This document shows, piece after piece, positions 1-51,866 of a DNA stretch of 64,000 bases. This DNA comes from Candidatus Doudnabacteria bacterium. Its GTDB lineage: Bacteria > Patescibacteriota > Doudnabacteria > UBA920 > O2-02-FULL-48-8. The stretch covers positions 447,698 to 511,697 of the forward strand of contig JBBCGO010000001.1 of NCBI GenBank assembly GCA_037200925.1. Direction: 5' to 3'. A program made the translations under genes and the position numbers. How positions within the stretch are numbered: the first letter of the stretch is position 1; each line of letters begins with the position of its first letter. The notes beneath the pieces are model-generated. The model was not told the DNA's origin and did no database searches. It saw only the letters and a list, made by a program, of their open reading frames with translations.

Positions 1-1118
1 ATAAAATCCAAGACCTGCTTATCAATCACGTCCGCTTTCACAATCGGTTGTTTGCAACTCTTATTCTCTTTCCTAAATTTACAACCATAGGCCAAATACT
101 CGCCGTTCTTCCACTTGTAATATTGGGCATACATCTTTGGCAGCATTCTGGCGTTAGGGTCATTCTCCTTGCCCTTAAGCTCTTTATAGCTGTAGTAGCA
201 ATATACCAACCCTTGCAGTAAATAAAATCTATGTTGAGCAACTGGCCGCCCAAAAGTATTCCTGCGGCCAGCTATGGCATCCTGCACCTTATCAAACAAC
301 TTTTGCGAAATTATAGCTGGGTGAATACCTTTTATCGTCGGGTAATTTTTCTTCCGAGAAAATACCATACCAAGGTAAACTTTATTGCTTAGGATGTCTT
401 TAATAGTGCTATAAGTATAGGGTCGGCCAGATTTAGTCCGTGCCTTTGCTTTATTCATTTCAACGGCTACATCCGCATACGAATACCGGCCGGTCGCATA
501 TAATAAATATATTTTCTTTACGTTCTTTGCTCCGAGAGGATCAATCCGCCATTCTGGATCATAAATCGGCCGTCCTTTTTCTTTATCAAAGCCGATTTTC
601 TTTTTCGTGTATCCCGCTGGCGGATTGCCAGTCTGTTTGCCTTGTGTGCGTTTCTCCATCAAAGAGTTCCTGACCCAAAAGCTGATCTGTCTTGAAGTGT
701 GCTCATCAAATAATTCGTTAATCCCCTCGTTTAGAAAAGAACTCGGATCATTCCAGTCATTACCAAAGTTCTGGGTTACTGATGTTACATCAATACCCAG
801 TTTCTTCCTAAGCAATTCTTTGTAATGCCTGGCTTCTTTGACATTGCGAGCAAACCGAGAGGTGTGATAAACCAAGATGACTTCAAACTTGTGTAGCATC
901 GCATCCGTAATCATCCTTTGGAAATCGTCTCGCTTCAAAGCATCCGTGCCTGACACCAAATCCTTATACCACTCCACGATTTGAATGTTGTGTTCACTGG
1001 CGAACTTCTCAATTGATCGCCTTTGGTTATCAGGCGAAAAACCCTTATCCTGCTCCTCAGTACTTTCGCGGATATAAGCAATGCCTGTTTTCAGTTTTAG
1101 AGAGGGTTTTTTAATCAT
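1..1118 (-). CDS. Large serine recombinase. The N-terminus is complete (ATG at 1118-1116); the C-terminus runs off the window start.
   Basis: Manual minus-strand translation from 1118 gives MIKKPSLKLKNGIAYIRESTEEQDKGFSPDNQRRSIEKFASEHNIQ..., i.e. the resolvase catalytic motif (IAYIRxSTEEQ with the Ser nucleophile). A downstream region is recombinase/zinc-ribbon-like (YLLQGLVYC...C). The ORF track lists no stop-bounded ORF for this frame, consistent with the ORF running off the edge. Confidence 0.8.
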   Translation of the reverse strand, partial: MIKKPSLKLKTGIAYIRESTEEQDKGFSPDNQRRSIEKFASEHNIQIVEWYKDLVSGTDALKRDDFQRMITDAMLHKFEVILVYHTSRFARNVKEARHYKELLRKKLGIDVTSVTQNFGNDWNDPSSFLNEGINELFDEHTSRQISFWVRNSLMEKRTQGKQTGNPPAGYTKKKIGFDKEKGRPIYDPEWRIDPLGAKNVKKIYLLYATGRYSYADVAVEMNKAKARTKSGRPYTYSTIKDILSNKVYLGMVFSRKKNYPTIKGIHPAIISQKLFDKVQDAIAGRRNTFGRPVAQHRFYLLQGLVYCYYSYKELKGKENDPNARMLPKMYAQYYKWKNGEYLAYGCKFRKENKSCKQPIVKADVIDKQVLDF

Positions 1119-1129
1119 AACTAATTAAC

Positions 1130-2182
1130 TTACAGTTTTCTGTATCGGGTAGCACTACCCATACCCAACCGTTCTATTTTCTTAAATTTCAATAACTTGT
1201 CCAATACTTGATTAACTGTCGGCCGAGCGACTTTAGCTTTTTTGCTAATCTCTTGGGGAGTGGCCTCGTCTACAGTTTGCAGATACTTCCAGACCAATAT
1301 CTGCTTGGGTGAGAGTAGTTTCTCTATGTCTTCTTTATTGAGCAAGCCAATGGCTATTTTTGACTGCTTAAGCAGTATGTCAAAGAAGAACTCCAACCAC
1401 GGGGTTATATCTTCTCTCTTGCTCTTAGCTGTCTGTTGGCTCTTTCTTAAGGCAATATAGTATTCTGATTTATTATCCTCGATCAATTTTTCGTGGGAGA
1501 CATAAGGCATATAGACAAACCCTTCTTTCAAAAGAAGTAAATTTGTAAGGACACGGGAAAGACGGCCGTTGCCATCTTGGAACGGATGAATGTTCAGAAA
1601 TTCTACAAGGAAGTTGCCGATCACAAGTAGCGGATTATATTTCTTAATTTTGAGCTGGGTTTCTGTCCAATCTACTAATTCTTGCATTTCTTTCGGTGTT
1701 AAGTATGCGGGAGTGGGATTAAATAAAGTTGCAACGAAATTACCTTGAGCATCCGTCATATCAACTCTATTCTCGCCTTTTTTATAATCGCCCTTATGAC
1801 CCTGATCTTTTTCGACATACTTAAGCAGCTCGTTATGCAAATGCTTAATTGAGCTTTCGGACAATTTTATTGTCTGCCAAGCATCAAAAACATTATTTAG
1901 CAGATCAAAGTATCCCTGCACTTCTTGTTTATCTCTCGACGCAAACTTCTTCATTCCCAAACCACGAATGAATTTCTCGACATCTTCATCAGTTAGTTTA
2001 GAGCCCTCAATACGGGTCGAGGCTCCTGTGGAGGTGATTAAAACCCATTTCTTAAGCCTGCCTAACAACTGTGGGCTCAATTGTGCCCCTGATGTCCAGC
2101 GACCCTTAAGATCGTCAATTTGGGCGATTTTAGCCCAAATAGCATCCGGTATGTTACTAAGGCGTTTATCGAAGTTTTTCAT
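1130..2182 (-). CDS. Fic/Doc family protein with a C-terminal winged-helix-like region
   Basis: Canonical Fic motif HPFQDGNGRLSR (HxFx[DE]GNGRxxR) in the 350-aa ORF. Confidence 0.85.
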   Translation of the reverse strand: MKNFDKRLSNIPDAIWAKIAQIDDLKGRWTSGAQLSPQLLGRLKKWVLITSTGASTRIEGSKLTDEDVEKFIRGLGMKKFASRDKQEVQGYFDLLNNVFDAWQTIKLSESSIKHLHNELLKYVEKDQGHKGDYKKGENRVDMTDAQGNFVATLFNPTPAYLTPKEMQELVDWTETQLKIKKYNPLLVIGNFLVEFLNIHPFQDGNGRLSRVLTNLLLLKEGFVYMPYVSHEKLIEDNKSEYYIALRKSQQTAKSKREDITPWLEFFFDILLKQSKIAIGLLNKEDIEKLLSPKQILVWKYLQTVDEATPQEISKKAKVARPTVNQVLDKLLKFKKIERLGMGSATRYRKL

Positions 2183-2414
2183 AGTTATTTAGCTAATATA
2201 ATGATATATATAAGATTATATACGATATATAAAATAAAGTCAAATTGTACTCCCGCTTGTAATGCTTGAGGAGTTCATCATTTTCGATTGTTAGATTTAT
2301 CATAATTTCAATTTTATTAATAGCTTGAATTTGAATTCTAAATAAAAACAGCCTTTCGGCCGCCATTTATTGCGAATCACGAAATTAAATATGTAATTCT
2401 AGCCTTTTCAGCAT

Positions 2415-3371
2415 TTAAGATAATTCGAACAATTGATTCGCTATCCCAAGTAGCTCGTCTTTCTTGGCTACATTATCAAACCATTTTTTAGGAATTCCGC
2501 CAATTCCGTAATATGCTCCGGCAAGTTGTCCGTATATTGCTCCCGTGGTATCAGCGTCATCCCCAAGATTGATTGCCTTGAGTACTCCGTCTTCAAAGAA
2601 TTCCGAGTTATAAAACGCCCACAAAGCCGCTTCCATAGATTTAACTACAAATCCACTCCCTTCTATAAAAGGCGGATCATGATGTTTGAAAGAACCACGG
2701 GCAATATTTTCTATTTCTGATGTGAGTTGATTATTTTTCCAGAAATCTGGAATCGGAGAATATAAATCAGACAATAATTCTTCTTTCGAAACCCCATTTA
2801 ATGCCCCGATAATAAGTCCGGTGTAATATTTGCAAGCATCAGAACATAACTGAGAGCCATGGGTAATTTTTGAGCTTAATCCAGCATTTTTTACTGCTTG
2901 CTCTGGATTACTTCTAAAATACAAAGGTATTGGAGCAAGTCGCATAAGACTTCCATTTCCGTCAGAATTTCGAGAAGAAATCGCCACATACGGATCGTCT
3001 CCATTTCGGTATGTCAGGAGCGCTCTAAGTATTGTTTGGCCGACACCAATAGCCTTTCCTGAGCTTGAACAGTATCCTGTTTCAAGCCATTTTTTATATT
3101 TTTCAATTTGATCAACAGGATCAAAAGATTTTTTCTCGATTAAACTGTTTGCAAGACATAATGCCATAGCAGTATCGTCAGACCAATGACCAGCGGGTAA
3201 ATCAAACCAATCAGAATCTCTAAAATCAGTTATAGGTTCAAATTCGCCAACTGCTTTAAATTCTGCGGGAACTCCGAGGGCATCGCCAATTGCTAAACCA
3301 AACAAGGAGCCATGATATTTTTCCAATAGCTCCTTTCGCACAAGAATTTTTTGTTTTGATTCGATTTCCAT
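2415..3371 (-). CDS. ADP-ribosylglycohydrolase family protein (DraG/ARH-like)
   Basis: Motifs GDALG, HWSDDT, GNGSLMR and DDADTTGAIYGQLAGAYYG are typical of the ADP-ribosylglycohydrolase fold. Confidence 0.85.
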   Translation of the reverse strand: MEIESKQKILVRKELLEKYHGSLFGLAIGDALGVPAEFKAVGEFEPITDFRDSDWFDLPAGHWSDDTAMALCLANSLIEKKSFDPVDQIEKYKKWLETGYCSSSGKAIGVGQTILRALLTYRNGDDPYVAISSRNSDGNGSLMRLAPIPLYFRSNPEQAVKNAGLSSKITHGSQLCSDACKYYTGLIIGALNGVSKEELLSDLYSPIPDFWKNNQLTSEIENIARGSFKHHDPPFIEGSGFVVKSMEAALWAFYNSEFFEDGVLKAINLGDDADTTGAIYGQLAGAYYGIGGIPKKWFDNVAKKDELLGIANQLFELS

Positions 3372-3372
3372 A

Positions 3373-4961
3373 TTATTTTAATTTAGAAAAAAACTTCCAA
3401 ATCGCAAACATACCATAAGTGTCTAGTTTACAATATTCCAACATCTGACTTTCCTTTTCTTTCGCCATCTCCCCAACTAATTCACCTTTAGTTATTTGTC
3501 GATAAGCCTCGATAGCATCGGTACCATTTTGTACACCAAGTGTTTCATAGGATAAATCTGAAGCCCCTGTTAGTTTGGCGACTATTGGCAAGACTTTTTT
3601 AATTGAGGCTCTGCCTTCAAATCCTGGATGTACGTAATGTTGATCCTCAACTATATCCATCAAATCGTATGTTCTTTCAACTACCTTAAGAAAAAAATCT
3701 TTATATTCTGGTAAAAAAATTGCAAGTTCGCGATTTCGTGTATTTTCGAATTTTTTAGACCACGAAATAACCGTTCCCTTATTACCGATATGTTCTCGTA
3801 AATTCTTCGCGATACGCTCAGAGGGCTCTCCATCTAAGATTAGACATTCGAAATGAGTAGGCTCTGAATTCTCGTCATTTAGAACATGTAACGAATATTG
3901 AAAAACAATTTGTTGGTAGGGACGATATCCGCTATACGGAGGGATGGCAGTTGGATATGTTTCATAGTCGAGAAAATAAAGAGGAAATACAAGCGAATCG
4001 AGTTCGGTCTTGATCGACTTAATATCAATCAATGGTTCTTGAGATTTATGAACCATGATTTGATTTAGTTTTCTTGGTTTACTAGGTTTTTCATTTTTTT
4101 TTGATTCTTTGGGCTTTAATCTATCGTCTATTGGCACATTGCCAATTTCCAGTATACCCTCATTAAGTAACTCCTCTAGATATCTCTTACTATTTCCAAT
4201 TCTATTTAAATCATGAACGCTGTATCTAGGTACGCTCGGGTTGATATAAGAAAACGCTGTGCAATGAGCACTGCGACCCCTATAGTAACAAGGGCATGGA
4301 ACCGAAGGCATTTTTTTACTTAATAAATAGTTTTGGGCCTGCTCCATTTCTTCTACGGCAATTGGTTTCAAGCGTTCTATCGCCTCGGTCTTATCCTCGA
4401 TGATGAAAAGTTGACCTGGTGTGAAATCTAGCTCGCCTTTTCTAATGTATGCTCGATTGAGACGGACAAGATATTTTTTATCCAATGGTACTCCACATGC
4501 TTCAAGAACATTCGCCTGGAAAGCAAGGTCATATTCGTATTGAAGTTCTCTTTTTTATTAACTCTCTTAGGTTTTCCCTCGTCTTCTTCATCATCCTCTT
4601 CGGTTGATGACATTTTTATTTCATATATTTCGTATTTCTGAATTGAATCGTTCCATTTCAGGACGTCGGCAGCAGCAACGTATCTATCAGTCGCAAAAAC
4701 AGCCTGATAAATTACAGGTGTTCGCTCCGTAATAAGTTTTTGAGTCAATTCTTGAGCACCTTCGCTCCGCCTCTCAACGAGATAACCCCCAGGAAACATT
4801 CCCCGTGCTAATTCTTCTACCTCATTGCCCATCACAGCTAACGATTTCTCGAAATCCGATACTTCAAACTTTGCATACTCTTTAGACTCATGTCTTTTTA
4901 CCCAAACGTTGTTTGGACACTCTCGGTAGAGAATAAAATCAGTTTTTGTAAGGAGTGCCAT
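3373..4961 (-). pseudogene. DUF2779/Cas4-like PD-(D/E)xK nuclease-like gene, split into two overlapping ORFs (4428..4961 and 3373..4485) by a +/-1 frameshift in an A6 run near 4549-4554
   Basis: The N-terminal ORF has a Cas4/RecB-like start (TDFILYRECPNNVW). The C-terminal ORF has FLDYETY (DUF2779-like). The frame upstream of the second ORF reads ...KRELQYEYDLAFQANVLEACGVPLDKKYLV, which is continuous with the first ORF after a 1-nt change in the aaaaaa tract. Confidence 0.55.
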
Positions 4962-4966
4962 AAATG

Positions 4967-7900
4967 TTAAGCGTTACGCGTGCCTTTGCAATAAGGAAAA
5001 CGAGAGCACCCATAAAACTTTCCTCTCCGGCTGTTTCTCAAGACCATACGTGAATTACAGCGAGGACATAACGAATCAGTTAGGACAGGCGCTGGTCTAG
5101 GTATGGATGTTGTTGTCAGGCGTGTACTGAGGTTTTTGCACGCATTGCAAAATCTCCCATAGCCAGTAATCAAATCAGCATCTTTGAAATCAATTAATGG
5201 CTTTACTTCTTTGCATCTTGGGCATTCCCTAATATCACCATTTTGGAGTCCTTCTATAGTGCCTTGTATATTTGCAAGAAGTGAGTTGGCATTCTCTGGA
5301 TTTTTAAGTAATCGCGCAATTCTATCATCAAGGCTCGCAATCGGGTTTTTCCCACTGTTGAACTTATTGATTCTTAAAAATTTATAGCCATAACTTTCTA
5401 ATACTTTCTGGCGGTATACGTCATCATTGGAGTAGTAGTGCTCATAGTTGAATTCGTTGACTTCATCTGCATCTTTGAAGTGTTCTAAGAAACCATCGTA
5501 CTCAATGATGATTTTGTGTTCCTTGTGTCGCTCATCGGTATAGATAAGATGAAAATCAACCTCGTATGCTGGATGAGTGTAGGTGGGGTCTAGTTGTTTT
5601 AGATATTTTCCTATTTCAAACTGTGGCATAAATTCAATTGAATCTTTGTGCTGTTTCCAAAATTTCGTTTGATAAAACCAATTTAGCACTTCTGGCTCTT
5701 TTTTAGAGTTTGGATCTGTCTCGGAAACGCCGTGCTCTTTTCGCGCTTCGTCCAACATATATTTATAGTGTCTTAACGCTTCTCCAGCAGAGCCGGTGAA
5801 GTCCTCCAGGGGCTTGCTCAATACGAAATGGACGCACTCTTTGGCACGACTAAAGCCCACATTCAAACGCTGCGCTTTTAGTTGCCCGTCCTCTTCAACA
5901 TCTACCTTGCTTAAATCCTTAATGAATACGCCCCAGAGCTTATCGCTGTGTGGAGAGGCTACCATTGAGTAGTAGATGATGTCGCGTTCTTCTCCCTGGC
6001 AGGTGTCGAACGTCATTATCTTGAGTTTCAGCTTGTCCTGGAAATAATCCCACTCTGGCATTTTGCCAATCATTTCTACCAGGAGCTTCTGCTGATTTGT
6101 GTGTGGTGTGATAATACCCACGCTCACGACTTTATCTTCATCCTTTAACCGTTTAAGTTCAGAGATGATAAACTCAACTTCTTTAACATTAGTGTTAGGA
6201 TAGCGTTCATCTGCTGTCGTGGTCTCAACATACGAAAATTTTATTACTTCGTCTATGGATTTCCCGCGAATCTTCATCACTTGCAAACTTTCCTGATAGA
6301 AATACTTGTTTGAATAGGAAATGATTTCTTTATAACCTCTAAAGTGTTTCAGCAATTGGATATTGTAGTTGCTGACGAACTCAAAGAACTCAAGAATAGA
6401 AGTCTTGATGTTGAATTTTTTGAGTCTTTCCAATTTTATTGGATCGGTGGAGACGTTAGCTCTAAAATTAGCATTCAATCCGTTCAGGTACTCACGGTTA
6501 GTATCTCCGCGCGCTTGTGCCGCTTTGATGTTACTAAATTGTTTTTTGTCTCCTAGAATCAGCACTTTCTTTGCCCGCAAGAGGGCAGGAAATGCTTGGG
6601 CAATGCTTACCTGTGAGGCTTCATCAATCACCACTAAATCAAATAATCCTGGCTCTAGTGGTATATACTCAGCGTAGTCCCTAATGCCTGCCAATATGCA
6701 CGGAAAAGCCTCTTTGAGCTTCTTAAACTCATCTCTCGGGAATTTCTGTTTATTCTTTATGATATTCTTTAATGTTTGGGCATCGTTGCGATTGTTTTCA
6801 CAAAAATCAATTAGCTGTCCATCGAGAAGGTATGTTACTTGAGTAGTAACCAAATCTTCAATTTGCCTCATACGAGCGGCGTAGTTCAACTCGAGAATGT
6901 TGGAAAAATCTTTGCTCACTTTTTGCTTTAGGTTCAAGTATCTAATCTGTTTATCAAATTCTAGTTCATCACCGTCCGTAATCGCGTTGCTTATCACTGT
7001 GGCGAACTGTTCGGTATTGATACCAATCTTTTTTGCTGTCTTCGGATATTTCTCAACAATCTCTTTGAGATACCCTACCTTCTCACTCAGAGCGACGATT
7101 TCTTGAACGCCCAGTATAATCGCCTCATCAGTAAGGAGCTTGTGAGCCATCGCGATGAAATCGTAGTCACCTACATTTTTTCCATTTATTTCGTCACCAA
7201 GTTTTTGAGCATAACTAAAAATCTCTTGTATGTCTTTAAGTTCCTGGAGTTGTTCGTGGGGATTGGAGATCATGCTGTGAATAAAGGTTTGCTTGAAACT
7301 AATATCCAATTCTTCTGCTCGTTTTTTACTAAACAGATATCCGACTGCCCAAAGTTTCAGCTTTGAATACTGCTCGATGAAATATTGGAGTTTCTCTAAA
7401 TCTTTTGAGTCAAACTGTGAGAACTTACTGATAGCGTCAATTTTATTATAAAATGTCGCCTTTACTTTCTGTATACTTTCAAGGGCCAGCATTAATAAAC
7501 GCAAGAAATTTTCGGAGTCATCTAGTGTTCGTATACTTTTAGGGGTTACCTCAAGAAGCTCAAAAAACTTCTGCGTGACATTAGAAGTGAAAACGTTTTT
7601 AATTTGCTGCAGTGAGCTTCGTAACTCTCCAAGTTCGATGGCCACTTCGTCTTGTGGAGCCAACTCTTCAAAATCGAAAAATAAAACTTTTTCACTAAAA
7701 TAAAGTTCCAAATCAAAAAATTCTTGGATTTCTTTGATGTTTATATTCTCATAAGCAACCATCTCCGCTTCCAAGTCTTCTTTTAGAGAATTTCCAGATT
7801 TGATAATGGTTTCTTCTATATTCTCATAGTCATTTTTTACTGCGCGATGATAAGTTTTTATTCTATCGATGGCACTTTGAGCGAGAATTGAATTATAAGT

Positions 7901-9526
7901 ATTGCCGGTTTTTCCAAGTCTTAAAATTGGGTTCTGAAAGTTTTCATCATTGCGAACCTTATTCATCGTCTGGGTAATTTTGTCTTCGACGACGTCCAGC
8001 GCTTCCTTTTTATCGGAAAGAACCAATACCGATTGGTTTTTCAAAATTGCATCGAAAATAATAGCGGTAATGGTATGACTTTTTCCCGTTCCTGGCGGCC
8101 CCGAAACTACTAAATAGTTGCAGCCTTCTTTATTAATTGCAGATAGGATTTGCCGCTGCTCGCTATTGAGTGGTATTGGACTTGGGTAGACAAGCTTATC
8201 TGCTGTTTCTGTACCGTCCCATTCACCCTCAACTTCCGGATTGAAAGGCTGAGGATTATTTCTAATAAAGTCGTCTATCAGTTTATTAAAAATTTCTGCA
8301 AGATTGCCACCTTCTAGGCTTAACATCTGGAGGATTTCTTCGTAGTCATTAACCAACGCTTCGTCCGACTTATCAAATAAACAGATGTAACTGCTGTTAG
8401 AAATACGCACAGACGCGCCACGGGCGATTGTAGATTCACCGCTTGAAAATTCCGACGTACCTTCAAGTCCAAAAAAATGAGACATTTCATTTAGAACATC
8501 GTTGATGATTTGAGGGAAATCATCTTTGTGTTGAGACAAATAGATAATGCGATCTGAAATAGTCTGTAAGCTGCCCGTGGTCCCTTTTTGGGTATTGTGC
8601 TCTTGAACTACGAACTCAAGAGCCTTTTTATTAATATATACCTGTGAATCGAAGTCGATACTTAAGGTGTCTCCTTCTCGTTTAGTTGAAAAAGGGATAT
8701 AGAAAATCGGGTACTTACTGTTATTGAAAGAAATATCTCCAAAGTAAAGATAAAATTCTTGCTTATCCAAAATGCTTTTGTTACGCTCCATCTCGAAAAG
8801 TTCCAAAAACAAATCAGCAACTTGGAGATTCTCAAAAAAGGAAGTGAGGTTGCCTTTTACGTCTTGTGGAATGAATACTGATTTGAGTTCTTTTGTGAGA
8901 TTAACCTTCTCTTGAGCAATAATAAGATTCAATACTTCTGAAATTTTGTTCTCCAACAACCGAAGTATGACTGCGGTCAACTCTTCTTCAATAAGATAAA
9001 TATTGTCTTCGTCGCCTAGGTTAAGATTTTGCAAGGGCTTCTCAACGCTTTCAACAAAAGGGTGCACCAGTGCACTACGAATAATCTTTGAGGCTTCTTC
9101 AAGAGAGTTAGTAAGAGCAACGTCGTACTCTTTTGCATATAAAGTGCCCGCCTTCTCTATTTCATCAGCGACTTTTTCAGTAATGCCAGCGATTTCTGTA
9201 TTACTGATTTTACCTATTTGGAGCTTGATTAAATCAAGTAAATTTTTAGGAAGGTTTGTTTTATAAACCCCCTTCTCAATTTTATTCAGAATGTCTTCAT
9301 CAAAACTTTTGCTAATAAGTTTTGATGTTAGCTTGCTGAAAGAAGGGTACTTTTGAAGATTCAAACCAATTAGTAAATTGTCATTGTTCCGAAACTCGAT
9401 AGCCCGACGAGGGAGCTTATGTTTATGGAAATCCGTCTCCAAGAAATCCATAAAATACTTAGCAACCTCTTTGATAAATAAGAGGCCATTTTGTTCGACT
9501 TTTTGAATTAATGTTGCTGGTTTCAT
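4967..9526 (-). CDS. Giant multidomain protein (1519 aa): N-terminal region of unknown function, SF1 (Upf1/DNA2-like) helicase core, DUF559/Vsr-like endonuclease domain, and two C-terminal topoisomerase-type C4 zinc ribbons
   Basis: Walker A VVSGPPGTGKSHT. Motif II VVIDEASQV. Motif VI-like VGFSRAKE. Vsr/DUF559-like IIIEYDGFLEH. CPRC...C..C twice, the second being CPRCNSRMVLRNSRRGKFYGCSRFPYC (zf-C4_Topoisom-like). Confidence 0.85.
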   Translation of the reverse strand: MKPATLIQKVEQNGLLFIKEVAKYFMDFLETDFHKHKLPRRAIEFRNNDNLLIGLNLQKYPSFSKLTSKLISKSFDEDILNKIEKGVYKTNLPKNLLDLIKLQIGKISNTEIAGITEKVADEIEKAGTLYAKEYDVALTNSLEEASKIIRSALVHPFVESVEKPLQNLNLGDEDNIYLIEEELTAVILRLLENKISEVLNLIIAQEKVNLTKELKSVFIPQDVKGNLTSFFENLQVADLFLELFEMERNKSILDKQEFYLYFGDISFNNSKYPIFYIPFSTKREGDTLSIDFDSQVYINKKALEFVVQEHNTQKGTTGSLQTISDRIIYLSQHKDDFPQIINDVLNEMSHFFGLEGTSEFSSGESTIARGASVRISNSSYICLFDKSDEALVNDYEEILQMLSLEGGNLAEIFNKLIDDFIRNNPQPFNPEVEGEWDGTETADKLVYPSPIPLNSEQRQILSAINKEGCNYLVVSGPPGTGKSHTITAIIFDAILKNQSVLVLSDKKEALDVVEDKITQTMNKVRNDENFQNPILRLGKTGNTYNSILAQSAIDRIKTYHRAVKNDYENIEETIIKSGNSLKEDLEAEMVAYENINIKEIQEFFDLELYFSEKVLFFDFEELAPQDEVAIELGELRSSLQQIKNVFTSNVTQKFFELLEVTPKSIRTLDDSENFLRLLMLALESIQKVKATFYNKIDAISKFSQFDSKDLEKLQYFIEQYSKLKLWAVGYLFSKKRAEELDISFKQTFIHSMISNPHEQLQELKDIQEIFSYAQKLGDEINGKNVGDYDFIAMAHKLLTDEAIILGVQEIVALSEKVGYLKEIVEKYPKTAKKIGINTEQFATVISNAITDGDELEFDKQIRYLNLKQKVSKDFSNILELNYAARMRQIEDLVTTQVTYLLDGQLIDFCENNRNDAQTLKNIIKNKQKFPRDEFKKLKEAFPCILAGIRDYAEYIPLEPGLFDLVVIDEASQVSIAQAFPALLRAKKVLILGDKKQFSNIKAAQARGDTNREYLNGLNANFRANVSTDPIKLERLKKFNIKTSILEFFEFVSNYNIQLLKHFRGYKEIISYSNKYFYQESLQVMKIRGKSIDEVIKFSYVETTTADERYPNTNVKEVEFIISELKRLKDEDKVVSVGIITPHTNQQKLLVEMIGKMPEWDYFQDKLKLKIMTFDTCQGEERDIIYYSMVASPHSDKLWGVFIKDLSKVDVEEDGQLKAQRLNVGFSRAKECVHFVLSKPLEDFTGSAGEALRHYKYMLDEARKEHGVSETDPNSKKEPEVLNWFYQTKFWKQHKDSIEFMPQFEIGKYLKQLDPTYTHPAYEVDFHLIYTDERHKEHKIIIEYDGFLEHFKDADEVNEFNYEHYYSNDDVYRQKVLESYGYKFLRINKFNSGKNPIASLDDRIARLLKNPENANSLLANIQGTIEGLQNGDIRECPRCKEVKPLIDFKDADLITGYGRFCNACKNLSTRLTTTSIPRPAPVLTDSLCPRCNSRMVLRNSRRGKFYGCSRFPYCKGTRNA

Positions 9527-9536
9527 TTTATTGGGA

Positions 9537-9716
9537 TTACTTGTTGCGAAGATTAGAGTTTCTTTTTAGGAACTCCTCAATCTCTATTTTATTAATACGC
9601 CAGTGCCCGACTTTCGTTGCCTCAAGCTTCTTACTCTGGATATAGCGAAAAACGGTCTTATAGCTAAGGCCCAGTTTCTTTGCCGTTTGTTCTATTGTTA
9701 GATAGTCTTTTGTCAT
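9537..9716 (-). CDS. Excisionase-type HTH DNA-binding protein (HTH_17 family), 59 aa, not in the ORF track because it is under 60 aa
   Basis: Manual translation gives MTKDYLTIEQTAKKLGLSYKTVFRYIQSKKLEATKVGHWRINKIEIEEFLKRNSNLRNK, matching the excisionase/MerR-like HTH_17 pattern (...KVGRxWRI...). The stop lies 10 nt upstream of the helicase start. Confidence 0.6.
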   Translation of the reverse strand: MTKDYLTIEQTAKKLGLSYKTVFRYIQSKKLEATKVGHWRINKIEIEEFLKRNSNLRNK

Positions 9717-9952
9717 AGTTAATTACTATACACCATCTGTCCAAAATTGTCAATAATTGTCCAATTTGTCCAGCAACCGGCCGTGATACTAATATTTGCT
9801 ATAAAAACCGTATTGAATTGAGACCGATATTTACTATGCCTTAGTGTCATTCCTGACAGCAGTATTTGCGTAATACTTAGGGCGGGTGGATTTGAGATGA
9901 ATTTATGATTTGGTTGCTTGTTACTGATAGAAGCGGATGATACTAATAATTG

Positions 9953-11098
9953 CTAAAATAAACTCTGTTGTTTCTGACTGGATTTTGGATTGATTCCAAA
10001 TTCTTGCAAGACAAAATTTAGGACTGCCCCGTCAGGAACATTCAGCTCTATCCCCCTAACCTCAATGTCCTTTATCTCTTTAAGGCGTCTGAAATAGGTG
10101 CTGCGAGAGCCAGTGGTTTGCTTAAGATGATTCTTTAGCCCTGCCCAACCTTCCAGCCTTAAAACTCCTACAGCTTGGTATAGCTGTGCCTTAAGTTTTC
10201 CGTCACTATAATTCTTTTCGATAAAATCCTTGACCTGTTGGTTAAGCTGCCTGTAATCATAATCCTTTGAAACAACCAAACCATTCAAGGGATGATTAAA
10301 TATCTGGTCAACTTCGTGCTTCAATAGATCATTGGCAATGTTATACTTGAAAACTTCTGCCAAGGTAAAATTCTTTTTTGACGGATAAAACTTAGATAGG
10401 AATTGTCTGACTGAAGTTACATTGTGCAGGGTCAATTCAAACCTAAGAATAGATTCCTTATTATCGGCCAGCTTTCTGTGAATTTCTTTTTCTTCTTTGG
10501 TAAAACCCTGATCCAGCAAACTCTGAATTTGGTCATAAACCACAAAATGCGACGACGTCCTATTGAAGTATTCAAGATGGGTTAACTGACCATTAGGATT
10601 AAATTTTGGTTCAAATGACGAACGAAATCGGTATTTAGAATGAGCTAAAATTGCCAAAGCTTCTTCGGTGGTGCCGAAGGCTTTCACGTTGAGGTTCTTA
10701 CAATAAGAGACCATCGTTACTACTCCGTCCCTAACACTATTTCGAGAAGCCGATACCTTGATTGAAGCTAAAAAACTTATGATTGAGTCAATCAGAACTT
10801 CAAGATCAGCTTCGGATATTTCATAATAATTCTGGCCGTATTTGAGTTTGGGCAAAGAAACCTCGAGGTATAAATAATTATTACCTCGATTAAAACTGCT
10901 TTGGTGTGTCCAGTATTTCATAATGTAAATGCCCTTGGCTTGCTGGGATTTACGAAATTGGTCGCTGGTATGAATTAACTTTTTAATTCTTTTCTTGCCG
11001 TTCTTATCGTTGTCAAAACTCCCCTTGGCATCCTGAAAATAAGGGTTGTTTTCAACCGAATGAAAATTTGAAATTCTGATTCTTACGCTATCAATCAT
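9953..11098 (-). CDS. Putative rolling-circle replication initiator (Rep_trans-like)
   Basis: HFVVYDQIQSLL...ILRFELTLHN resembles the Rep_trans core (catalytic YDK followed by RxExR). The N-terminus IDSVRIRISNF resembles IDxLRFTF. The call rests on these weak motifs plus context only. Confidence 0.45.
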   Translation of the reverse strand: MIDSVRIRISNFHSVENNPYFQDAKGSFDNDKNGKKRIKKLIHTSDQFRKSQQAKGIYIMKYWTHQSSFNRGNNYLYLEVSLPKLKYGQNYYEISEADLEVLIDSIISFLASIKVSASRNSVRDGVVTMVSYCKNLNVKAFGTTEEALAILAHSKYRFRSSFEPKFNPNGQLTHLEYFNRTSSHFVVYDQIQSLLDQGFTKEEKEIHRKLADNKESILRFELTLHNVTSVRQFLSKFYPSKKNFTLAEVFKYNIANDLLKHEVDQIFNHPLNGLVVSKDYDYRQLNQQVKDFIEKNYSDGKLKAQLYQAVGVLRLEGWAGLKNHLKQTTGSRSTYFRRLKEIKDIEVRGIELNVPDGAVLNFVLQEFGINPKSSQKQQSLF

Positions 11099-11121
11099 AG
11101 AGGGGGTTTTTTAAGAGATGG

Positions 11122-11304
11122 TTAAGTCGCCACCCTGGTCTTAGGAGAACCCCCTCTAAGAGTTGAACCTACAGCCAAGGTAGCAGCTTTACTATCCCTG
11201 TTCTTAATAACTTGTTTTTGCCAGTAATTAAAGAAGTATCTGGCTAAGGCGTCAGACACAGCTTCTTTGTTTTCTTTGGTTAGTTTTGTTCTATGATTTG
11301 TCAT
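11122..11304 (-). CDS. Hypothetical small protein
   Basis: 60-aa ORF, no recognisable motif. Confidence 0.3.
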   Translation of the reverse strand: MTNHRTKLTKENKEAVSDALARYFFNYWQKQVIKNRDSKAATLAVGSTLRGGSPKTRVAT

Positions 11305-11409
11305 TTTTTTGAAACAAAAACAGCCCCATCAGGGCTGTTCTCGTAAGAACAGATTCTAATGGGGCTTCGTAAAGCCTAAGCCACAAAGTCTCGTAAGGCC
11401 TTATGACAC

Positions 11410-12207
11410 TTATTTGTCGGGGATAATTTTCAAATCCTTTGGGATTTGGAGGGTCTCGCTACACTTGCTACATTTATGCGTTCCTCTCATAAAGTGAGAC
11501 ATATCTTCAATTTTGAAGATCAGGTTGCCGCATTTGCTACAAACACAATTCGCACTCTTAATTCTTGGTGAAATTATACCTTCTTTGATGTAGTTGTCAA
11601 CTTGTTTCTTAAATCTTTCCTCAACTTTAAGGGATATATCGTCGGCCAAATTATCAAATCTCTCTTTTAAAGCCATCACGGCCGACCTGACTTCAAATGC
11701 AGGCGATGGAGATGGGCTTGGTGAGTAAGATGGCGATGGTGAAAACGAAGGAGATAAACTGATCTGTTCGACGGTAAGACCAAAATCATATTTTTTATTC
11801 AGAGAAACAACACTACTAATAACTCGGTCACTGGCTTCGGTCAATCTTATTGTAGGTTCAGTTAAGGTGGCAAAATTAGTGGTCAACTGTTGTATTGATG
11901 ATACAACCTTTCCAGCCTGAATAAATACGGGAGAATGAGCTAAATCAGTCAACACTTTTGCGGAATTATTTAGGTCAATCAACATTCCATTATTAACTGT
12001 CATAACCGTGCCTAAATTTGCAAGATTCTGGGTTGCCAAGACTAGGCTAGGAGAATGGATCGTTTCTGCTAATGCCCTTGCCGACCTGGTTATATCAGTA
12101 ACAATTGCATCGTTGATCGAAGTTCCAATAATAGCAGAGACTGGTGCTGGTTTTTTCAAATCAACTTCGTCTTTTTTCTTGTTTTGAGGGGGTTTAGTGT
12201 CGGACAT
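11410..12207 (-). CDS. Hypothetical protein with an SP-repeat linker and a C-terminal Cys4 zinc ribbon
   Basis: SPSFSPSPSYSPSPSPSP repeat. CSKCGN...HKCSKCSETL at the C-terminus. A hairpin plus T-run terminator at 11305-11345 read on the minus strand. Confidence 0.5.
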   Translation of the reverse strand: MSDTKPPQNKKKDEVDLKKPAPVSAIIGTSINDAIVTDITRSARALAETIHSPSLVLATQNLANLGTVMTVNNGMLIDLNNSAKVLTDLAHSPVFIQAGKVVSSIQQLTTNFATLTEPTIRLTEASDRVISSVVSLNKKYDFGLTVEQISLSPSFSPSPSYSPSPSPSPAFEVRSAVMALKERFDNLADDISLKVEERFKKQVDNYIKEGIISPRIKSANCVCSKCGNLIFKIEDMSHFMRGTHKCSKCSETLQIPKDLKIIPDK

Positions 12208-12366
12208 TACTTAGAGGGGTTTATATGCATCAATATATTAACAAAAAACAGGCTTGCCGCCTATTTCAAATTTTGGAATCGCATAGTAAAGGATGTTAGA
12301 ACTCAAATATATACTACACAGAGTGCTTAAAACTACCCTAGAATATTTTAGGAGTTATAATTATTT

Positions 12367-12654
12367 TCAGTCCTCTAACCATTTATTTTTTTGAATGATC
12401 CCAATAAAATATGCGGTTGCGTGTGTTGCAAGTGTAAGTCCAGTCTTACTTAACCCGTCCCAATCGCCGATAGAAATAAAGTGATAAGCCATTATTATAG
12501 CCCAAAGCAATACTATCGCTGGTAAGACATAAATAACACAAATCAAAACATTATTTACTGCGTTTAATGCAGTTTGTTTCCGTCTATGACTTTGTGAAGC
12601 ATCATCAGCTTCCAAATCAGCCTCTGTTGCAACATTTTTGCCTTTCCTTTTCAT
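12367..12654 (-). CDS. Small membrane protein
   Basis: Two hydrophobic helices. Stop/start abuts the ImmA gene. Confidence 0.45.
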   Translation of the reverse strand: MKRKGKNVATEADLEADDASQSHRRKQTALNAVNNVLICVIYVLPAIVLLWAIIMAYHFISIGDWDGLSKTGLTLATHATAYFIGIIQKNKWLED

Positions 12655-12655
12655 A

Positions 12656-13168
12656 TTAGACTATGGTTTGCCCTAGTAAGAATCTTGCTCTCAATGTTGC
12701 CGCAGATTCTGAAACCTTAAATTGCTCTGCAACTTCCGGCAAACTAATAGCATTTTTCCAAACCCTTAAAAATAAGTCTTTAGGCATCAGTAAATCAGCC
12801 GCCATATTATTGGCTTCAATTTCGATCTTTTTTTCAGCGTCTGTTAACTCTCTGCCCTCTTCGCTATTAAGTGCCTTAACAGGTTGTTTAATATTATCAA
12901 TATGTTCATTATTTGTATCAAAAAGATGTTTATGTTGAATGAAATGAGCTATTTCGTGAGCAATTGTAAAACGCTTCCTTGTTAACGGGTGAGAAGTGTT
13001 AATGTAAATAACAAAGTTGTCGCCCTCTTTGCTCAAAGAACCAGCATAATTATCATCTAATTCGCTGGTTTCTACTACATATAGACCTAATTCTTTTGCC
13101 AAATCAACAATAGGCACAGGATTTTGCTGAGCATATTTTGCTAAGATTTGTTCGGTTTTTTGATCCAT
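12656..13168 (-). CDS. ImmA/IrrE family metallopeptidase (DUF955)
   Basis: HEIAHF (HExxH) at the expected position. Family typical of prophage/ICE regulation modules. Confidence 0.8.
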   Translation of the reverse strand: MDQKTEQILAKYAQQNPVPIVDLAKELGLYVVETSELDDNYAGSLSKEGDNFVIYINTSHPLTRKRFTIAHEIAHFIQHKHLFDTNNEHIDNIKQPVKALNSEEGRELTDAEKKIEIEANNMAADLLMPKDLFLRVWKNAISLPEVAEQFKVSESAATLRARFLLGQTIV

Positions 13169-13297
13169 ACTTTTTAGAAAATAATGCCTAATTCTATACT
13201 ACCACACCCTCTGGGTAAAGTCATTGGATAAAATGAGCCTTGCATTCTTCAATTGAAAACCTAAATTACCCAGCTTTAATTTATAGAAAATAAATTT

Positions 13298-13372
13298 TGG
13301 GGTGCCAGACGAGAATCGAACTCGCGTGACCGCTGCCACAGAGCGGCGTTCTACCATTGAACTACTGGCACC
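13298..13372 (-). tRNA. tRNA-His (anticodon GTG) with encoded G-1 and CCA
   Basis: Hand-folded cloverleaf: 8-bp acceptor including G-1:C73. Anticodon stem CCGCU/AGCGG with loop CUGUGGC. T-loop TTCGATT. 3' CCA encoded. Confidence 0.85.
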
Positions 13373-13450
13373 ATAACAATTTAATTACACTACTTGCTAC
13401 ACATCATAATGGCCACATCCTAACAGTTTAATTTGCTTCCACATTGGAAA

Positions 13451-13525
13451 GTCAGCGGCCGAGCGGAATCGGACCCACGTGACAGCTGCCACAGAGCTGC
13501 GTTCTACCATTGAACTACGGGCACC
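13451..13525 (-). pseudogene. Degenerate tRNA-His(GTG)-like copy. The 5' ~47 nt are near-identical to the intact tRNA-His. The 3' half is divergent with a poor T-arm and acceptor and no CCA.
   Basis: Alignment with 13298..13372: 3 substitutions in the 5' 47 nt versus about 9 in the 3' 25 nt. The T-stem pairs only 3/5. Confidence 0.5.
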
Positions 13526-13588
13526 TCGTCTCAGTTTGTAGACACTTCGCGATTTTGCTTCGCAAAATACGCTACGGTCTACACGCTG
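13526..13588 (-). promoter_or_regulatory. Conserved structured tRNA 5'-leader element, copy A (tRNA orientation is the minus strand)
   Basis: About 85-90% identical to copies at 19008..19081 and 38495..38567. Contains a TTTTGC-GAA-GCAAAA hairpin and an outer GYAGAC/GUCURC stem with compensatory changes. Confidence 0.6.
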
Positions 13589-13651
13589 CTCCTCTCAAAA
13601 AATTTGTTCTCGGCCTTCGGCCTGCGACTCAAATTTTTTGTGGTTTAAAAG

Positions 13652-13963
13652 CTACTTACTTGCGACCATGACCGCGAACACGACCACTGTCAGTGCAAAC
13701 ATCCAACCCACAGTATACCCAAAAAACTTCAGCGCTTCTTTTTTCTGTCCATCAAAATACATCAGCACCGGCCGGCCCAATACTAACGCGCTGGTGATCG
13801 CGGCGGATAGCACAAACAACATCAGGACTAAGATAGGAGTAAACGCAGTATCTTTCTGTCCGAACCAAACAGACCCATGGTTCATGATAGATGCGACGAG
13901 AGTGACATACAGCAGCACCAAAACCGCATGACCCAAACTGTGAGCAACTGGATTGTCTTTCAT
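13652..13963 (-). CDS. Small membrane protein (hypothetical)
   Basis: 103-aa ORF with three hydrophobic segments. Preferred over the antisense ORF 13638..13931, which has an implausible composition. Confidence 0.45.
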   Translation of the reverse strand: MKDNPVAHSLGHAVLVLLYVTLVASIMNHGSVWFGQKDTAFTPILVLMLFVLSAAITSALVLGRPVLMYFDGQKKEALKFFGYTVGWMFALTVVVFAVMVASK

Positions 13964-13977
13964 ATTTTATCCTTTCT

Positions 13978-14052
13978 TGGTGCCCCTGGCTGGAATCGAA
14001 CCAACATCAAGGCCTTAGAAGAGCCTTGCTTTATCCATTAAGCTACAGGGGC
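13978..14052 (-). tRNA. tRNA-Arg (anticodon TCT)
   Basis: Hand-folded: acceptor GCCCCUG/CAGGGGC. Anticodon stem AGGCU/GGCCU with loop CUUCUAA. T-loop TTCGATT. CCA encoded. Confidence 0.8.
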
Positions 14053-32178: not shown

Positions 32179-32526
32179 TTATGTCTTAAGCATATCCAAA
32201 ATCCTCTCTGCGACTCCTTCAAGATTATTGTTTATTTCGTTGTTCCAGATCCGTAACACCTTGTAACCAAGTTTATTGAGGTACTTACCTCTTTCAATAT
32301 CTTTGTTAGCATTCTCAGGTTGATTGTGTTGCCCTCCGTCTATTTCTATGACCAGTTTATATTTATAGCAGCAAAAATCAGCAATGTATTTGCCGATCAC
32401 GAATTGCCGGCGGAATTTATAATCATAAAATCTTCGGCTGCGAAGCAAATACCAAAGTTGATTCTCTTCCGGAGTTGAAGTTTTTCTCAGCTTCCTCGCC
32501 AGTTTTGTAATATTTTCTTCTTGCAT
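32179..32526 (-). CDS. DUF559 (Vsr-like) endonuclease domain protein. The ATG at 32526 is preferred over the upstream GTG.
   Basis: IEIDGGQH and the overall DUF559 pattern. Flanked by inverted repeats. Confidence 0.8.
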   Translation of the reverse strand: MQEENITKLARKLRKTSTPEENQLWYLLRSRRFYDYKFRRQFVIGKYIADFCCYKYKLVIEIDGGQHNQPENANKDIERGKYLNKLGYKVLRIWNNEINNNLEGVAERILDMLKT

Positions 32527-32758
32527 CAAACCCCTCACCCGCCCCTTCGGGGCACCCTCTCCCGTTGGGAGAGGGTAAATTAGATTTAATTAATTATATC
32601 AAACGAAAACATTTTTGCTCATGAGCAGAGTCATGAGCAAATAAAAACCCGCCTCTGGATTGAGGCGGGTTTTTGCTCGATTCACCCTCCCACCAAAATT
32701 TGGTGGGAGGGTTTATAGTTTCGAGAAACTAACTGCTTATCTCTTAACTAACTATGGG

Positions 32759-38708: not shown

Positions 38709-38999
38709 TTAACTCGGCATGGAAGTCCGGACGGCTTCTTTCAGATTTTTGCCGGCGCGGAACTTCGGGACCCTGGTGGCCGCGATCTGGATCTTCTGCT
38801 CCGGGTGCTGCGGATTCACGCCCATGCGGGCCGAGCGGCTGGAAACCATGAAAGCGCCGAAGCCCGAAATATTAACTTCCTGCCCGTTCTTCAGAGCATC
38901 GGTTATGACTTCCACGAATCCATGCAGGATCTTTTCCGCTTCGCTTTTGCCCACAGCCAGTTTGGCCGCCAAAGTATCTATCAATTCTTGTTTGTTCAT
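38709..38999 (-). CDS. hup: HU/IHF family DNA-binding protein
   Basis: MNKQELIDTLA...GFGAF...R.ARMGVNP....I.I.A...P.F.AGK matches the HU signature. Confidence 0.9.
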   Translation of the reverse strand: MNKQELIDTLAAKLAVGKSEAEKILHGFVEVITDALKNGQEVNISGFGAFMVSSRSARMGVNPQHPEQKIQIAATRVPKFRAGKNLKEAVRTSMPS

Positions 39000-51470: not shown

Positions 51471-51866
51471 TTATTTCCTCTTTTCTTCTCCCCTTGCGGG
51501 AGAAGATGCCCGGAGGGCAGATGAGGGGTGAATAAGATTCAAAAGAATCTTTTCAAGGACTTTTTTAGGATTCCGGTCTAAATCGCTATTCCAAAATCTA
51601 AGCATTTTAAATCCTTGCTTTCTCAAATATGTTTCTCTTTCTCTATCCATAATTATATTAACAGATTTATTATGCGGACTGCCATCTAATTCAATAATTA
51701 AGCGTTTTCGGAAACAACAAAAATCGGCAATATAGTTGTCAATTCTAACCTGCCTGCGGAATTTAAATCCAAATAGTCTTCGATCTTGTAGCCAAAACCA
51801 GAGTTTTTTCTCTTGAGTGGTTTGTCTCTTTCTTAAATTCCTGGCTATATTTACACGCTCTTTCAT
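51471..51866 (-). CDS. DUF559 (Vsr-like) endonuclease domain protein. The C-terminal tail reads through the flanking repeat.
   Basis: IIELDGSPH. Paralog of 32179..32526. Flanked by inverted repeats. Confidence 0.8.
   Translation of the reverse strand: MKERVNIARNLRKRQTTQEKKLWFWLQDRRLFGFKFRRQVRIDNYIADFCCFRKRLIIELDGSPHNKSVNIIMDRERETYLRKQGFKMLRFWNSDLDRNPKKVLEKILLNLIHPSSALRASSPARGEEKRK

Follow-up and report, generated by a model that had tools for sequence, protein, structure and literature searches.

Does a row of genes that sets an ADP-ribosylhydrolase beside a Fic protein and two nucleases form one system in which ADP-ribosylation is written and erased, or has it been assembled from parts that act separately? 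The row in question lies on the minus strand of a 64-kb stretch of a Candidatus Doudnabacteria genome (contig JBBCGO010000001.1), hereafter the window. It runs from a helix-turn-helix (HTH) gene through a giant helicase, a DUF2779 gene, and an ADP-ribosylhydrolase (ARH) gene to a Fic gene. All positions follow the numbering of the 64-kb window, and domain calls come from profile scans with Pfam, NCBIfam, PADLOC, and PHROGs. The original prediction, made from the window's letters alone, took these genes for a conflict module with DarTG-like logic. We lean toward a different answer, with a little more than even confidence: the locus is a mosaic of separable defense modules on a mobile element and not one ADP-ribosylation write-and-erase system. 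The general view of a conflict locus stands, given the low-GC mobile cargo and the anti-phage model matches (SoFic, 8.6e-42; MkoC, 1e-39). The single DarTG-like system does not, as no ADP-ribosyltransferase was found, the Fic protein is predicted to AMPylate, and the linkage of helicase, ARH, and Fic is not conserved. The locus is unsurprising in kind, and it is the specific pairing of Fic with ARH that fails.

The row opens with a 59-residue HTH protein of the excisionase/MerR type (positions 9537–9716; TIGR01764, 2e-11; phrog_66; mad1-like in PADLOC). Ten nucleotides further lies a 1519-residue superfamily 1 (SF1) helicase of the Upf1/Dna2-like kind, with AAA_11, AAA_12, and Zn_ribbon_Top1 matches (4967–9526). 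The DUF2779 gene follows after 5 nt (3373–4961; PF11074, 1.8e-37); it encodes a Cas4-like PD-(D/E)xK domain and a DEDD-type exonuclease domain and is broken here by a 1-nt deletion. A single nucleotide separates it from a full-length member of the ADP-ribosyl(arginine)hydrolase (ARH/ARG) family (2415–3371; PF03747, 1.8e-76), and 232 nt separate that gene from the SoFic-type Fic gene (1130–2182; Fic, 9e-15; PADLOC SoFic, 8.6e-42). Upon remeasurement, the gaps of 10, 5, 1, and 232 nt were exactly those reported before, and the earlier domain calls for all four large proteins were confirmed. The order and coordinates of the genes are real as well, but the split in the DUF2779 gene and a recombinase gene 11 nt after Fic had been overlooked. 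Gene order, domains, and the frameshift can be read directly from the window, as the linkage pattern can from the loci surveyed in other genomes.

The helicase survey comprised 76 species-level loci from groups of the Candidate Phyla Radiation (CPR), Bacteroidota, Acidobacteriota, Actinomycetota, Proteobacteria, and Woesearchaeota, with flanks of up to 10 kb that were queried with the window proteins. DUF2779 lies directly 3′ of the helicase in 4 of the 76 (L010, L011, L047, and L067), within about 600 nt in 2 further loci, and 6 kb off in 1. Otherwise the gene on the 3′ side varies: DUF2130 (four times), WYL, SMC_N, AbiEii, OLD, Panacea, or a recombinase. WYL proteins, whose domain has been put forward as a ligand sensor for ARG-centric systems (PMC9503650), stand 3′ of the helicase in 3 of 51 loci. 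The helicase often, though not always, has an HTH gene just ahead of it: the open reading frame (ORF) immediately upstream encodes an HTH_17 protein in 7 of 59 cases and an XRE-type HTH in 6, and we rejected an excisionase-type HTH as a universal helicase partner on the strength of that 7/59. A serine recombinase falls within 10 kb of the helicase at roughly 20 of the 76 loci. The clearest arrangement is that of the helicase P0128, which is 83% identical to the one in the window and occurs on at least 24 contigs. All 8 places listed for it have the same order: a divergent recombinase comes first, then an XRE HTH and the helicase, which 6 nt separate from a gene for a 529-residue DUF2779 protein (78% identical to the window's). 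The flanks differ among the 8. Behind the helicases of L008 and L025 (83% identical), a recombinase follows directly. The helicase and DUF2779 are a real recurrent pair and the only recurrent pair of the locus.

The ARH gene behaves as a movable cassette. It is near the helicase in 0 of the 76 loci, and neither ARH nor Fic occurs in any of the 8 places listed for P0128. A metagenome scan with the single ARH protein as query gave 3 loci. The survey from the ARH side covered about 11 close contexts, some of them on contigs of just 2–3 kb, and 80 viral loci. Close relatives (78–88% identical) occupy varied defense-island settings: after a type III restriction-modification (R-M) system and before CBASS (L001); on another serine-recombinase element, flanked by a KAP NTPase and a gene with the SocA/Panacea antitoxin domain (L004–L006, 2960–4907; 79–80% identical); after a type III R-M system, DUF2779, and DUF7638/9 (L007); after a different, 1170-residue SF1 helicase and an MTES_1575 nuclease, again with DUF7638/9 (L088); after a DpnII R-M system, an HNH protein, and a DUF4209 protein (EMARD_N), followed by DUF7638/9 (L089); and among small genes of unknown family (L090, L176, and L177). 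The closest relative, P0001 (88%), sits 9 nt past a 70%-identical helicase of the window's family in 5 samples. When L171 is compared with the window, 85% nucleotide identity is confined to the ARH ORF, and the adjoining helicase is 70% identical in protein. Adjacency of helicase and ARH is rare and has arisen at least twice. Around the 80 viral loci (31–50% identity), none of Fic, helicase, and DUF2779 occurs. The ARH family itself is present in viruses at 320 IMG/VR loci, with 37–42% identical copies in cultured jumbo phages; viral scans with the helicase as query gave 1 locus, and those with Fic and DUF2779 gave no match.

Fic is linked to none of the helicase, DUF2779, or ARH. It occurs near the helicase in 3 of the 76 loci, always upstream and at 24–28% identity, and none was detected in the flanks (up to 10 kb) retrieved for the roughly 11 close ARH contexts. 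The conserved linkage that the original prediction proposed to look for in other genomes has largely failed to appear. Within the window, the two best promoter-like sites in our scan (both 11/12, minus strand, consensus matches only) sit directly before the HTH gene (TTGACA-17-TATAGT, 9725–9753) and some 33 nt ahead of the Fic start (TTGACT-17-TATAAT, 2215–2243). About 50 nt past the ARH stop there is a terminator-like hairpin followed by a T-run, also a consensus match only (2347–2364). These signals suggest that HTH–helicase–DUF2779–ARH is transcribed as one unit and Fic–recombinase as another, with operon boundaries placed by consensus. Because a terminator-like hairpin and a promoter-like site both fall within the 232-nt gap, Fic is probably a separate unit from the ARH operon. 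A 57-residue ORF in the same gap (2193–2366) was considered as a gene or an AS1-like antitoxin and rejected; it matches no family and overlaps the predicted terminator and promoter.

The Fic protein carries the inhibitory motif STRIEG near its N-terminus and a winged HTH domain (TrmB/MarR-like) at its C-terminus; its active-site motif, HPFQDGNGRLSR, is an intact form of canonical HPFx(D/E)GNGRxxR. Residues 52–339 align to positions 61–340 of 361 in the PADLOC SoFic model, and the match to Protein Data Bank (PDB) entry 8uqu has an E value of 1.8e-31. These features identify a putative class-II AMPylase of the SoFic type. Its score of 46.7 bits against an NCBIfam equivalog cut-off of 550 bits speaks against orthology to Shewanella SoFic. 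SoFic, which works as a single gene, is an AMPylating abortive-infection toxin (PMC12249575). The window protein shares with it the HPFx(D/E)GNGRxxR motif, the N-terminal (S/T)xxxE(G/N) inhibitory motif, and a C-terminal domain, but unlike SoFic (PMC12249575) it has no small AS1-like antitoxin gene downstream; the recombinase gene comes next, 11 nt away.

The setting of these genes is that of a mobile element. GC content is 0.38–0.40 over positions 1–14,000 and about 0.48 elsewhere in the window. The low-GC block spans the recombinase to an ImmA/IrrE peptidase, and two tRNA-His genes mark its edge. The recombinase (2–1118, minus strand) is a large serine recombinase of the CcrB/XisF-like kind (phrog_95 integrase, 7e-74) with Resolvase, Recombinase, and Zn_ribbon_recom domains. 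It begins at position 1118, 11 nt past the Fic stop, and extends beyond the window edge, so that only its N-terminal 372 residues lie inside; the complete protein has 546 residues in the independent Logan assembly L084. The remainder of the window consists of host genes, among them type IV pilus genes, holA, GroEL, Fpg, HisRS, and an FtsZ-like protein. Because of the low GC content, the recombinase-to-ImmA block that ends at tRNA-His, and the host genes beyond, we place the genes of interest within the cargo of an integrative element. As part of the same joint mosaic reading, and with the same guarded preference, we take positions 1–13.3 kb to be cargo moved by the large serine recombinase. 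The two tRNA-His(GTG) genes (13298–13371 and 13453–13525, minus strand) are 82 nt apart; their first 60 nt are 90% identical, and their 3′ parts have diverged. The pair is the probable integration site. Separately, the element may carry, or may have rebuilt at integration, a tRNA-His copy. The helicase is 100% identical to a protein of a metagenome-assembled genome of Candidatus Doudnabacteria, a CPR lineage.

We propose that the HTH, helicase, and DUF2779 genes form the conserved core of this mosaic, in which the helicase, with its probable Vsr-like nuclease, would translocate along foreign nucleic acid, and DUF2779, a Cas4-like/DEDD double nuclease broken here by the 1-nt deletion, would help to degrade it. 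ARH would be an accessory cassette at the 3′ end of the operon. Because no cognate transferase was found, ARH most likely strips ADP-ribose that a foreign ADP-ribosyltransferase, from a phage or competitor, has set on host or element molecules. This role agrees with the prediction of host systems that are centered on ARG, lack an ADP-ribosyltransferase, and counter viral ADP-ribosylation (PMC9503650). Fic, with its own putative promoter, would act as an independent abortive-infection toxin that is co-transcribed with the recombinase. We infer these biochemical activities and the defense role of the modules from the domains that they carry.

Several observations weigh against this picture. Promoter-like sites show no overall enrichment in the window, with 16 found and 24.5 expected. 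The 5-nt and 1-nt gaps suggest translational coupling. The helicase–ARH adjacency has appeared twice independently, in the window and with P0001 (9-nt gap, 5 samples), and a third close ARH (L088) follows another SF1 helicase-nuclease. Such recurrence exceeds what would be expected of fully unrelated modules, and there may be a functional link between helicase and ARH. On the side of mobility, a look for att sites gave no convincing direct repeat around the element in L084. Finally, the nuclease assigned to the helicase is a probable one, of the Vsr/DUF559-like type, with weak evidence behind it. At the helicase C-terminus, MTES_1575 matches with an E value of 9e-4 and DUF559 with a weak 0.075; a D...EYDG...H pattern is invariant across 31 helicase homologues; and the top fold matches of a low-confidence model of this region (predicted local distance difference test score, pLDDT, 66) are all PD-(D/E)xK nucleases, none of them significant. 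Because family scores, motif, and fold model are each weak, the nuclease remains an inference. Among the host genes of the window are two stand-alone DUF559/MTES_1575 (Vsr-like) endonuclease genes, at 32182–32538 (119 residues) and 51474–51866 (131 residues), with E values of 3.5e-40 and 3e-37; the same fold gives only a weak signal at the helicase C-terminus.

The helicase resembles known defense proteins. Its best anti-phage model matches are PDC-S37 (1e-42), MkoC (1e-39), MkoA, and Hhe (4e-22) in PADLOC and ProA in NCBIfam. Residues 272–1231 align to positions 93–937 of 1136 in MkoC. Scores are far under the curated cut-offs, at 144 versus 1500 bits for ProA and 98.8 versus 2000 bits for Hhe. 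With Hhe, MkoC, ProA, and PDC-S37 it has in common a very large polypeptide, an Upf1/Dna2-like SF1 core fused to a nuclease (here a probable one), and occurrence on mobile islands. Unlike MkoC, for which type II Mokosh requires a phospholipase D (PLD) nuclease domain, it has no such domain and instead has the probable Vsr/DUF559-like nuclease and Top1-type zinc ribbons. Hhe combines DUF4011, an AAA_11/AAA_12 helicase, and a Vsr-like nuclease; the window protein has no DUF4011 match, and its match to Hhe is restricted to the helicase C-terminal region. The N-terminal 450 residues have no match in the profile scans. Its recurrent DUF2779 partner sets it apart from the helicase-nuclease systems listed in PADLOC. 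In four of its homologues, P0149, P0150, P0157, and P0158, a WYL domain replaces the Top1 zinc ribbon. Among relatives of the window's helicase cassette, about 300 nt just past a DUF2779 gene (L178:7268–7570) are the reverse complement, at 96% identity, of L182:1–293, a segment made up of the 3′ end of a serine recombinase gene and its flank. This match suggests a cassette of about 8 kb that has terminal inverted repeats, can be inverted, or occurs in multiple contexts; the contigs with this cassette are mostly 5–10 kb long, as expected of a repeated mobile unit.

The original prediction treated DUF2779 as a single gene. In the window it consists of two ORFs, 4428–4961 (177 residues) and 3373–4485 (370 residues), with the frameshift at a run of six A residues (4551–4556, minus strand). 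Extending the run from A6 to A7 restores a protein of 529 residues that exactly matches a protein of GCA_015689235.1, where the intact gene lies 5 nt past a 100%-identical helicase. The same split recurs in L084. DUF2779 proteins combine a Cas4-like domain with a DEDD-type exonuclease domain (PMC13621843), and the break, at residues 137/138, falls within the Cas4-like domain. Relatives encode the same peptide, VNKKRELQYEYD, as AAC AAG AAA/AAG AGA, without a conserved slippery run. We excluded a programmed frameshift on this ground: because the relatives encode VNKKRELQYEYD without the A-run, the break is either a 1-nt deletion peculiar to this lineage or an error in the reads.

The ARH protein covers positions 1–286 of 287 in PF03747, with the metal-site motifs WSDDT and GDDADT intact, and its residues D65, D66, T67, D272, D274, and T275 are invariant among 40 homologues. 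More than 7,000 matches at E<1e-20 make this a very large family. Among curated NCBIfam families Tri1 scores best (235 bits), and DraG reaches 147 bits against a cut-off of 337; both are under their cut-offs. The structural relatives follow the same order, with the Thermus protein 2cwc (9e-60) and Tri1 (6dre, 4e-49) well ahead of DraG (about 1e-28). The earlier suspicion that this is no housekeeping DraG was therefore sound. The Tri1 match begins at position 56 and leaves uncovered the N-terminal part of the model, which we take to be a toxin-binding extension. The fold and metal-site motifs are those of Tre1–Tri1 and DraT–DraG, yet the protein is under both equivalog cut-offs, and no Tre1, DraT, type VI secretion, or nif genes were found in the window (for DraT and nif, Pfam on ORFs of at least 110 residues). 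Two relatives deserve mention in their own right. P0016, a 488-residue homologue that is 70% identical to ARH, is fused to a macrodomain (PF01661), and so unites two ADP-ribose erasers in one protein; and at L004–L006 the SocA/Panacea gene and the 172-residue ORF that follows may be a toxin-antitoxin pair beside ARH.

If ARH erases, what writes? The search for an ADP-ribosyltransferase partner that had been proposed recognized none in the window, with smaller and unmatched ORFs leaving that negative incomplete. Specifically, no ADP-ribosyltransferase family was found among the island proteins (Pfam, NCBIfam, PADLOC, PHROGs), several of which lack any family match, so that this negative is incomplete; nor was one found with Pfam in 40 ORFs of at least 110 residues across 14–64 kb, where smaller ORFs were unscanned and some of the 40 unmatched. 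No DarT (DUF4433) was found beside ARH by Pfam, NCBIfam, and PADLOC on the island or by Pfam on the 40 window ORFs. In three close ARH contexts, a protein of about 175 residues with DUF7638 and DUF7639 lies directly before or after ARH, in an order that flips (L007:9477–10001, L088:3545–4087, and L089:7493–8041). Its family is small (199 matches) and has invariant Cys, His, and Asp residues. The AlphaFold model, a confident one (pLDDT 91), has no fold match in the PDB (best Foldseek E value, 0.93), and the sequence has no PDB match either. We considered this protein as the missing writer and rejected it, as there is no PDB fold or sequence match by which to call it an ADP-ribosyltransferase and it is absent from the window. 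DUF7638/9 may be a true partner of this ARH clade, possibly one of the ARG-associated proteins of Iyer et al.

The rival that survives best, though we consider it unlikely, is that HTH, helicase, DUF2779, and ARH make up one ARG-centric anti-phage system, with Fic separate. ARH would strip phage ADP-ribose, possibly from the helicase-nuclease or its nucleic-acid substrate, and the helicase and nucleases would be the effector arm. Defense against viral ADP-ribosylation is the predicted role of ARG-centric host systems that lack a coupled ADP-ribosyltransferase or sirtuin (Iyer, Burroughs, Anantharaman, Aravind 2022; PMC9503650, section 3.8). Like them, the locus has an ARH without a writer, a variable neighborhood, nucleases of the restriction endonuclease (REase) fold linked to helicases, and an HTH regulator, and such systems are described as sometimes accreting REases and helicases (PMC9503650). 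The 10-, 5-, and 1-nt gaps, with a single promoter and a single terminator predicted for the four genes, fit this proposal, as do the placement of ARH immediately behind a 70%-identical helicase in 5 further samples, ARH after an SF1 helicase and MTES_1575 in L088, and DUF2779 near ARH again in L007. A helicase is also essential beside an ARH-fold enzyme in DarHTG (PMC13069673). Against this stand the absence of ARH from all 76 helicase loci and all 8 places listed for P0128, the scarcity of close ARH relatives with an adjoining helicase (most have none), and the frameshift in the DUF2779 link. The ARG-centric systems, themselves predictions, have a Nudix- or WYL-HTH regulator in about 42% of cases and a rhodanese or other phosphatase in about 55%. 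No Nudix/WYL regulators or phosphatases are present in the island, where the regulator is instead the 59-residue excisionase-type HTH.

DarHTG (Liu-DS3; NAR 2026, PMC13069673) is similar in layout, with a helicase and an ARH-fold hydrolase (DarG3 there) in one operon in an anti-phage context. The antitoxin in DarTG/DarHTG is a macrodomain (DarG2), NADAR (DarG1), or ARH-fold (DarG3) protein, and the ARH fold is present here. DarHTG, however, requires the DNA ADP-ribosyltransferase DarT, none of which was found here, and its helicase is UvrD-like rather than Upf1-like with a nuclease.

Two further proposals appear to us quite doubtful, and about equally so. The first is that HTH–helicase–DUF2779 is an undescribed anti-phage system, moved by a serine recombinase and present at many insertion sites, into which, in some lineages, ARH has been recruited as an anti-anti-defense eraser. 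If this is true, the recruited ARH removes phage-written ADP-ribose from the effector or from the effector's substrate. The second has ARH serve the element itself in counter-defense or self-protection, as an orphan eraser of the antitoxin kind that would help the element to settle in hosts with ADP-ribosylating defenses or toxins; ARH would then be functionally unrelated to its neighbors. Phages do carry orphan erasers against DarT (PMC11825919), and this idea accords with the frequency of the family in viruses (320 IMG/VR loci; 37–42% identical copies in jumbo phages), with a best family match to Tri1 that starts at model position 56, and with the cassette-like behavior of ARH. It fits less well with the company that close relatives keep, which consists of defense genes (R-M, CBASS, KAP NTPase) and not anti-defense genes, and with an ARH that is co-oriented and apparently co-transcribed with a defense-type helicase.

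The original proposal, in which a Fic toxin, an ARH eraser or antitoxin, and two nucleases form one DarTG-like module, we now regard as highly improbable. The two genes are 232 nt apart on the same strand, and both families are known in conflict systems. The product of a Fic enzyme is an AMP phosphodiester, and an ARH enzyme cleaves the C1″ glycosidic bond of ribose. Because ARH chemistry cannot reverse an AMP phosphodiester, a write-and-erase pair of Fic and ARH is mechanistically unsupported. Moreover, the Fic protein has its own inhibitory motif, terminator-like and promoter-like signals separate the two genes, Fic was detected in the fetched flanks of none of the roughly 11 close ARH contexts and none of the 80 viral ARH loci, and the window scans found no ADP-ribosyltransferase. 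Just as improbable is a chance gathering of housekeeping genes of the ordinary sort, in which helicase and nuclease would serve repair and ARH would be a DraG-like regulator, for although DUF2779 is quasi-essential in minimal Mycoplasma (PMC13621843) and the ARH family includes metabolic regulators such as DraG, the GC content is low, a recombinase is present, the flanks vary, the helicase is spread patchily across phyla, archaea included, the DraG score is under its cut-off, and the window showed neither DraT nor nif genes.

Upstream of the HTH gene, the element carries a further run of minus-strand genes (9953–13168) for proteins of 381 residues (9953–11098), 60 residues, and 265 residues (11410–12207), all of unknown family, a 95-residue membrane protein (12367–12654), and the ImmA/IrrE M78 peptidase. 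The 381-, 265-, and 95-residue proteins have no family in Pfam, NCBIfam, PHROGs, or PADLOC. The 265-residue protein contains an SPSP-rich linker and ends in a CxxC...CxxC zinc ribbon, the 95-residue ORF overlaps the ImmA stop, and the ImmA/IrrE peptidase has a capP-like match in PADLOC (1.4e-29). In the host part, an 809-residue pseudopilin-like protein with an ice-binding-like domain is encoded inside the type IV pilus cluster (21658–24084), and a 756-residue protein has four lamin-tail domains (38999–41266); both are unusual surface proteins in a CPR genome.

Overall, the locus illustrates how serine-recombinase elements accrete defense cargo within the tiny genomes of the CPR. Its main lead is the HTH–helicase–DUF2779 cassette together with an ARH that has been placed twice independently at the cassette's 3′ end. 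The HTH–helicase/nuclease–DUF2779 cassette, which is compact, highly mobile, and found in CPR, in many other phyla, and in some archaea, is a candidate for an uncatalogued defense system, and it would give the DUF2779 double nuclease its first biological context. A writer-less ARH clade that resides in defense islands, and sometimes in a helicase operon, offers a concrete case for the host-eraser prediction made in 2022.

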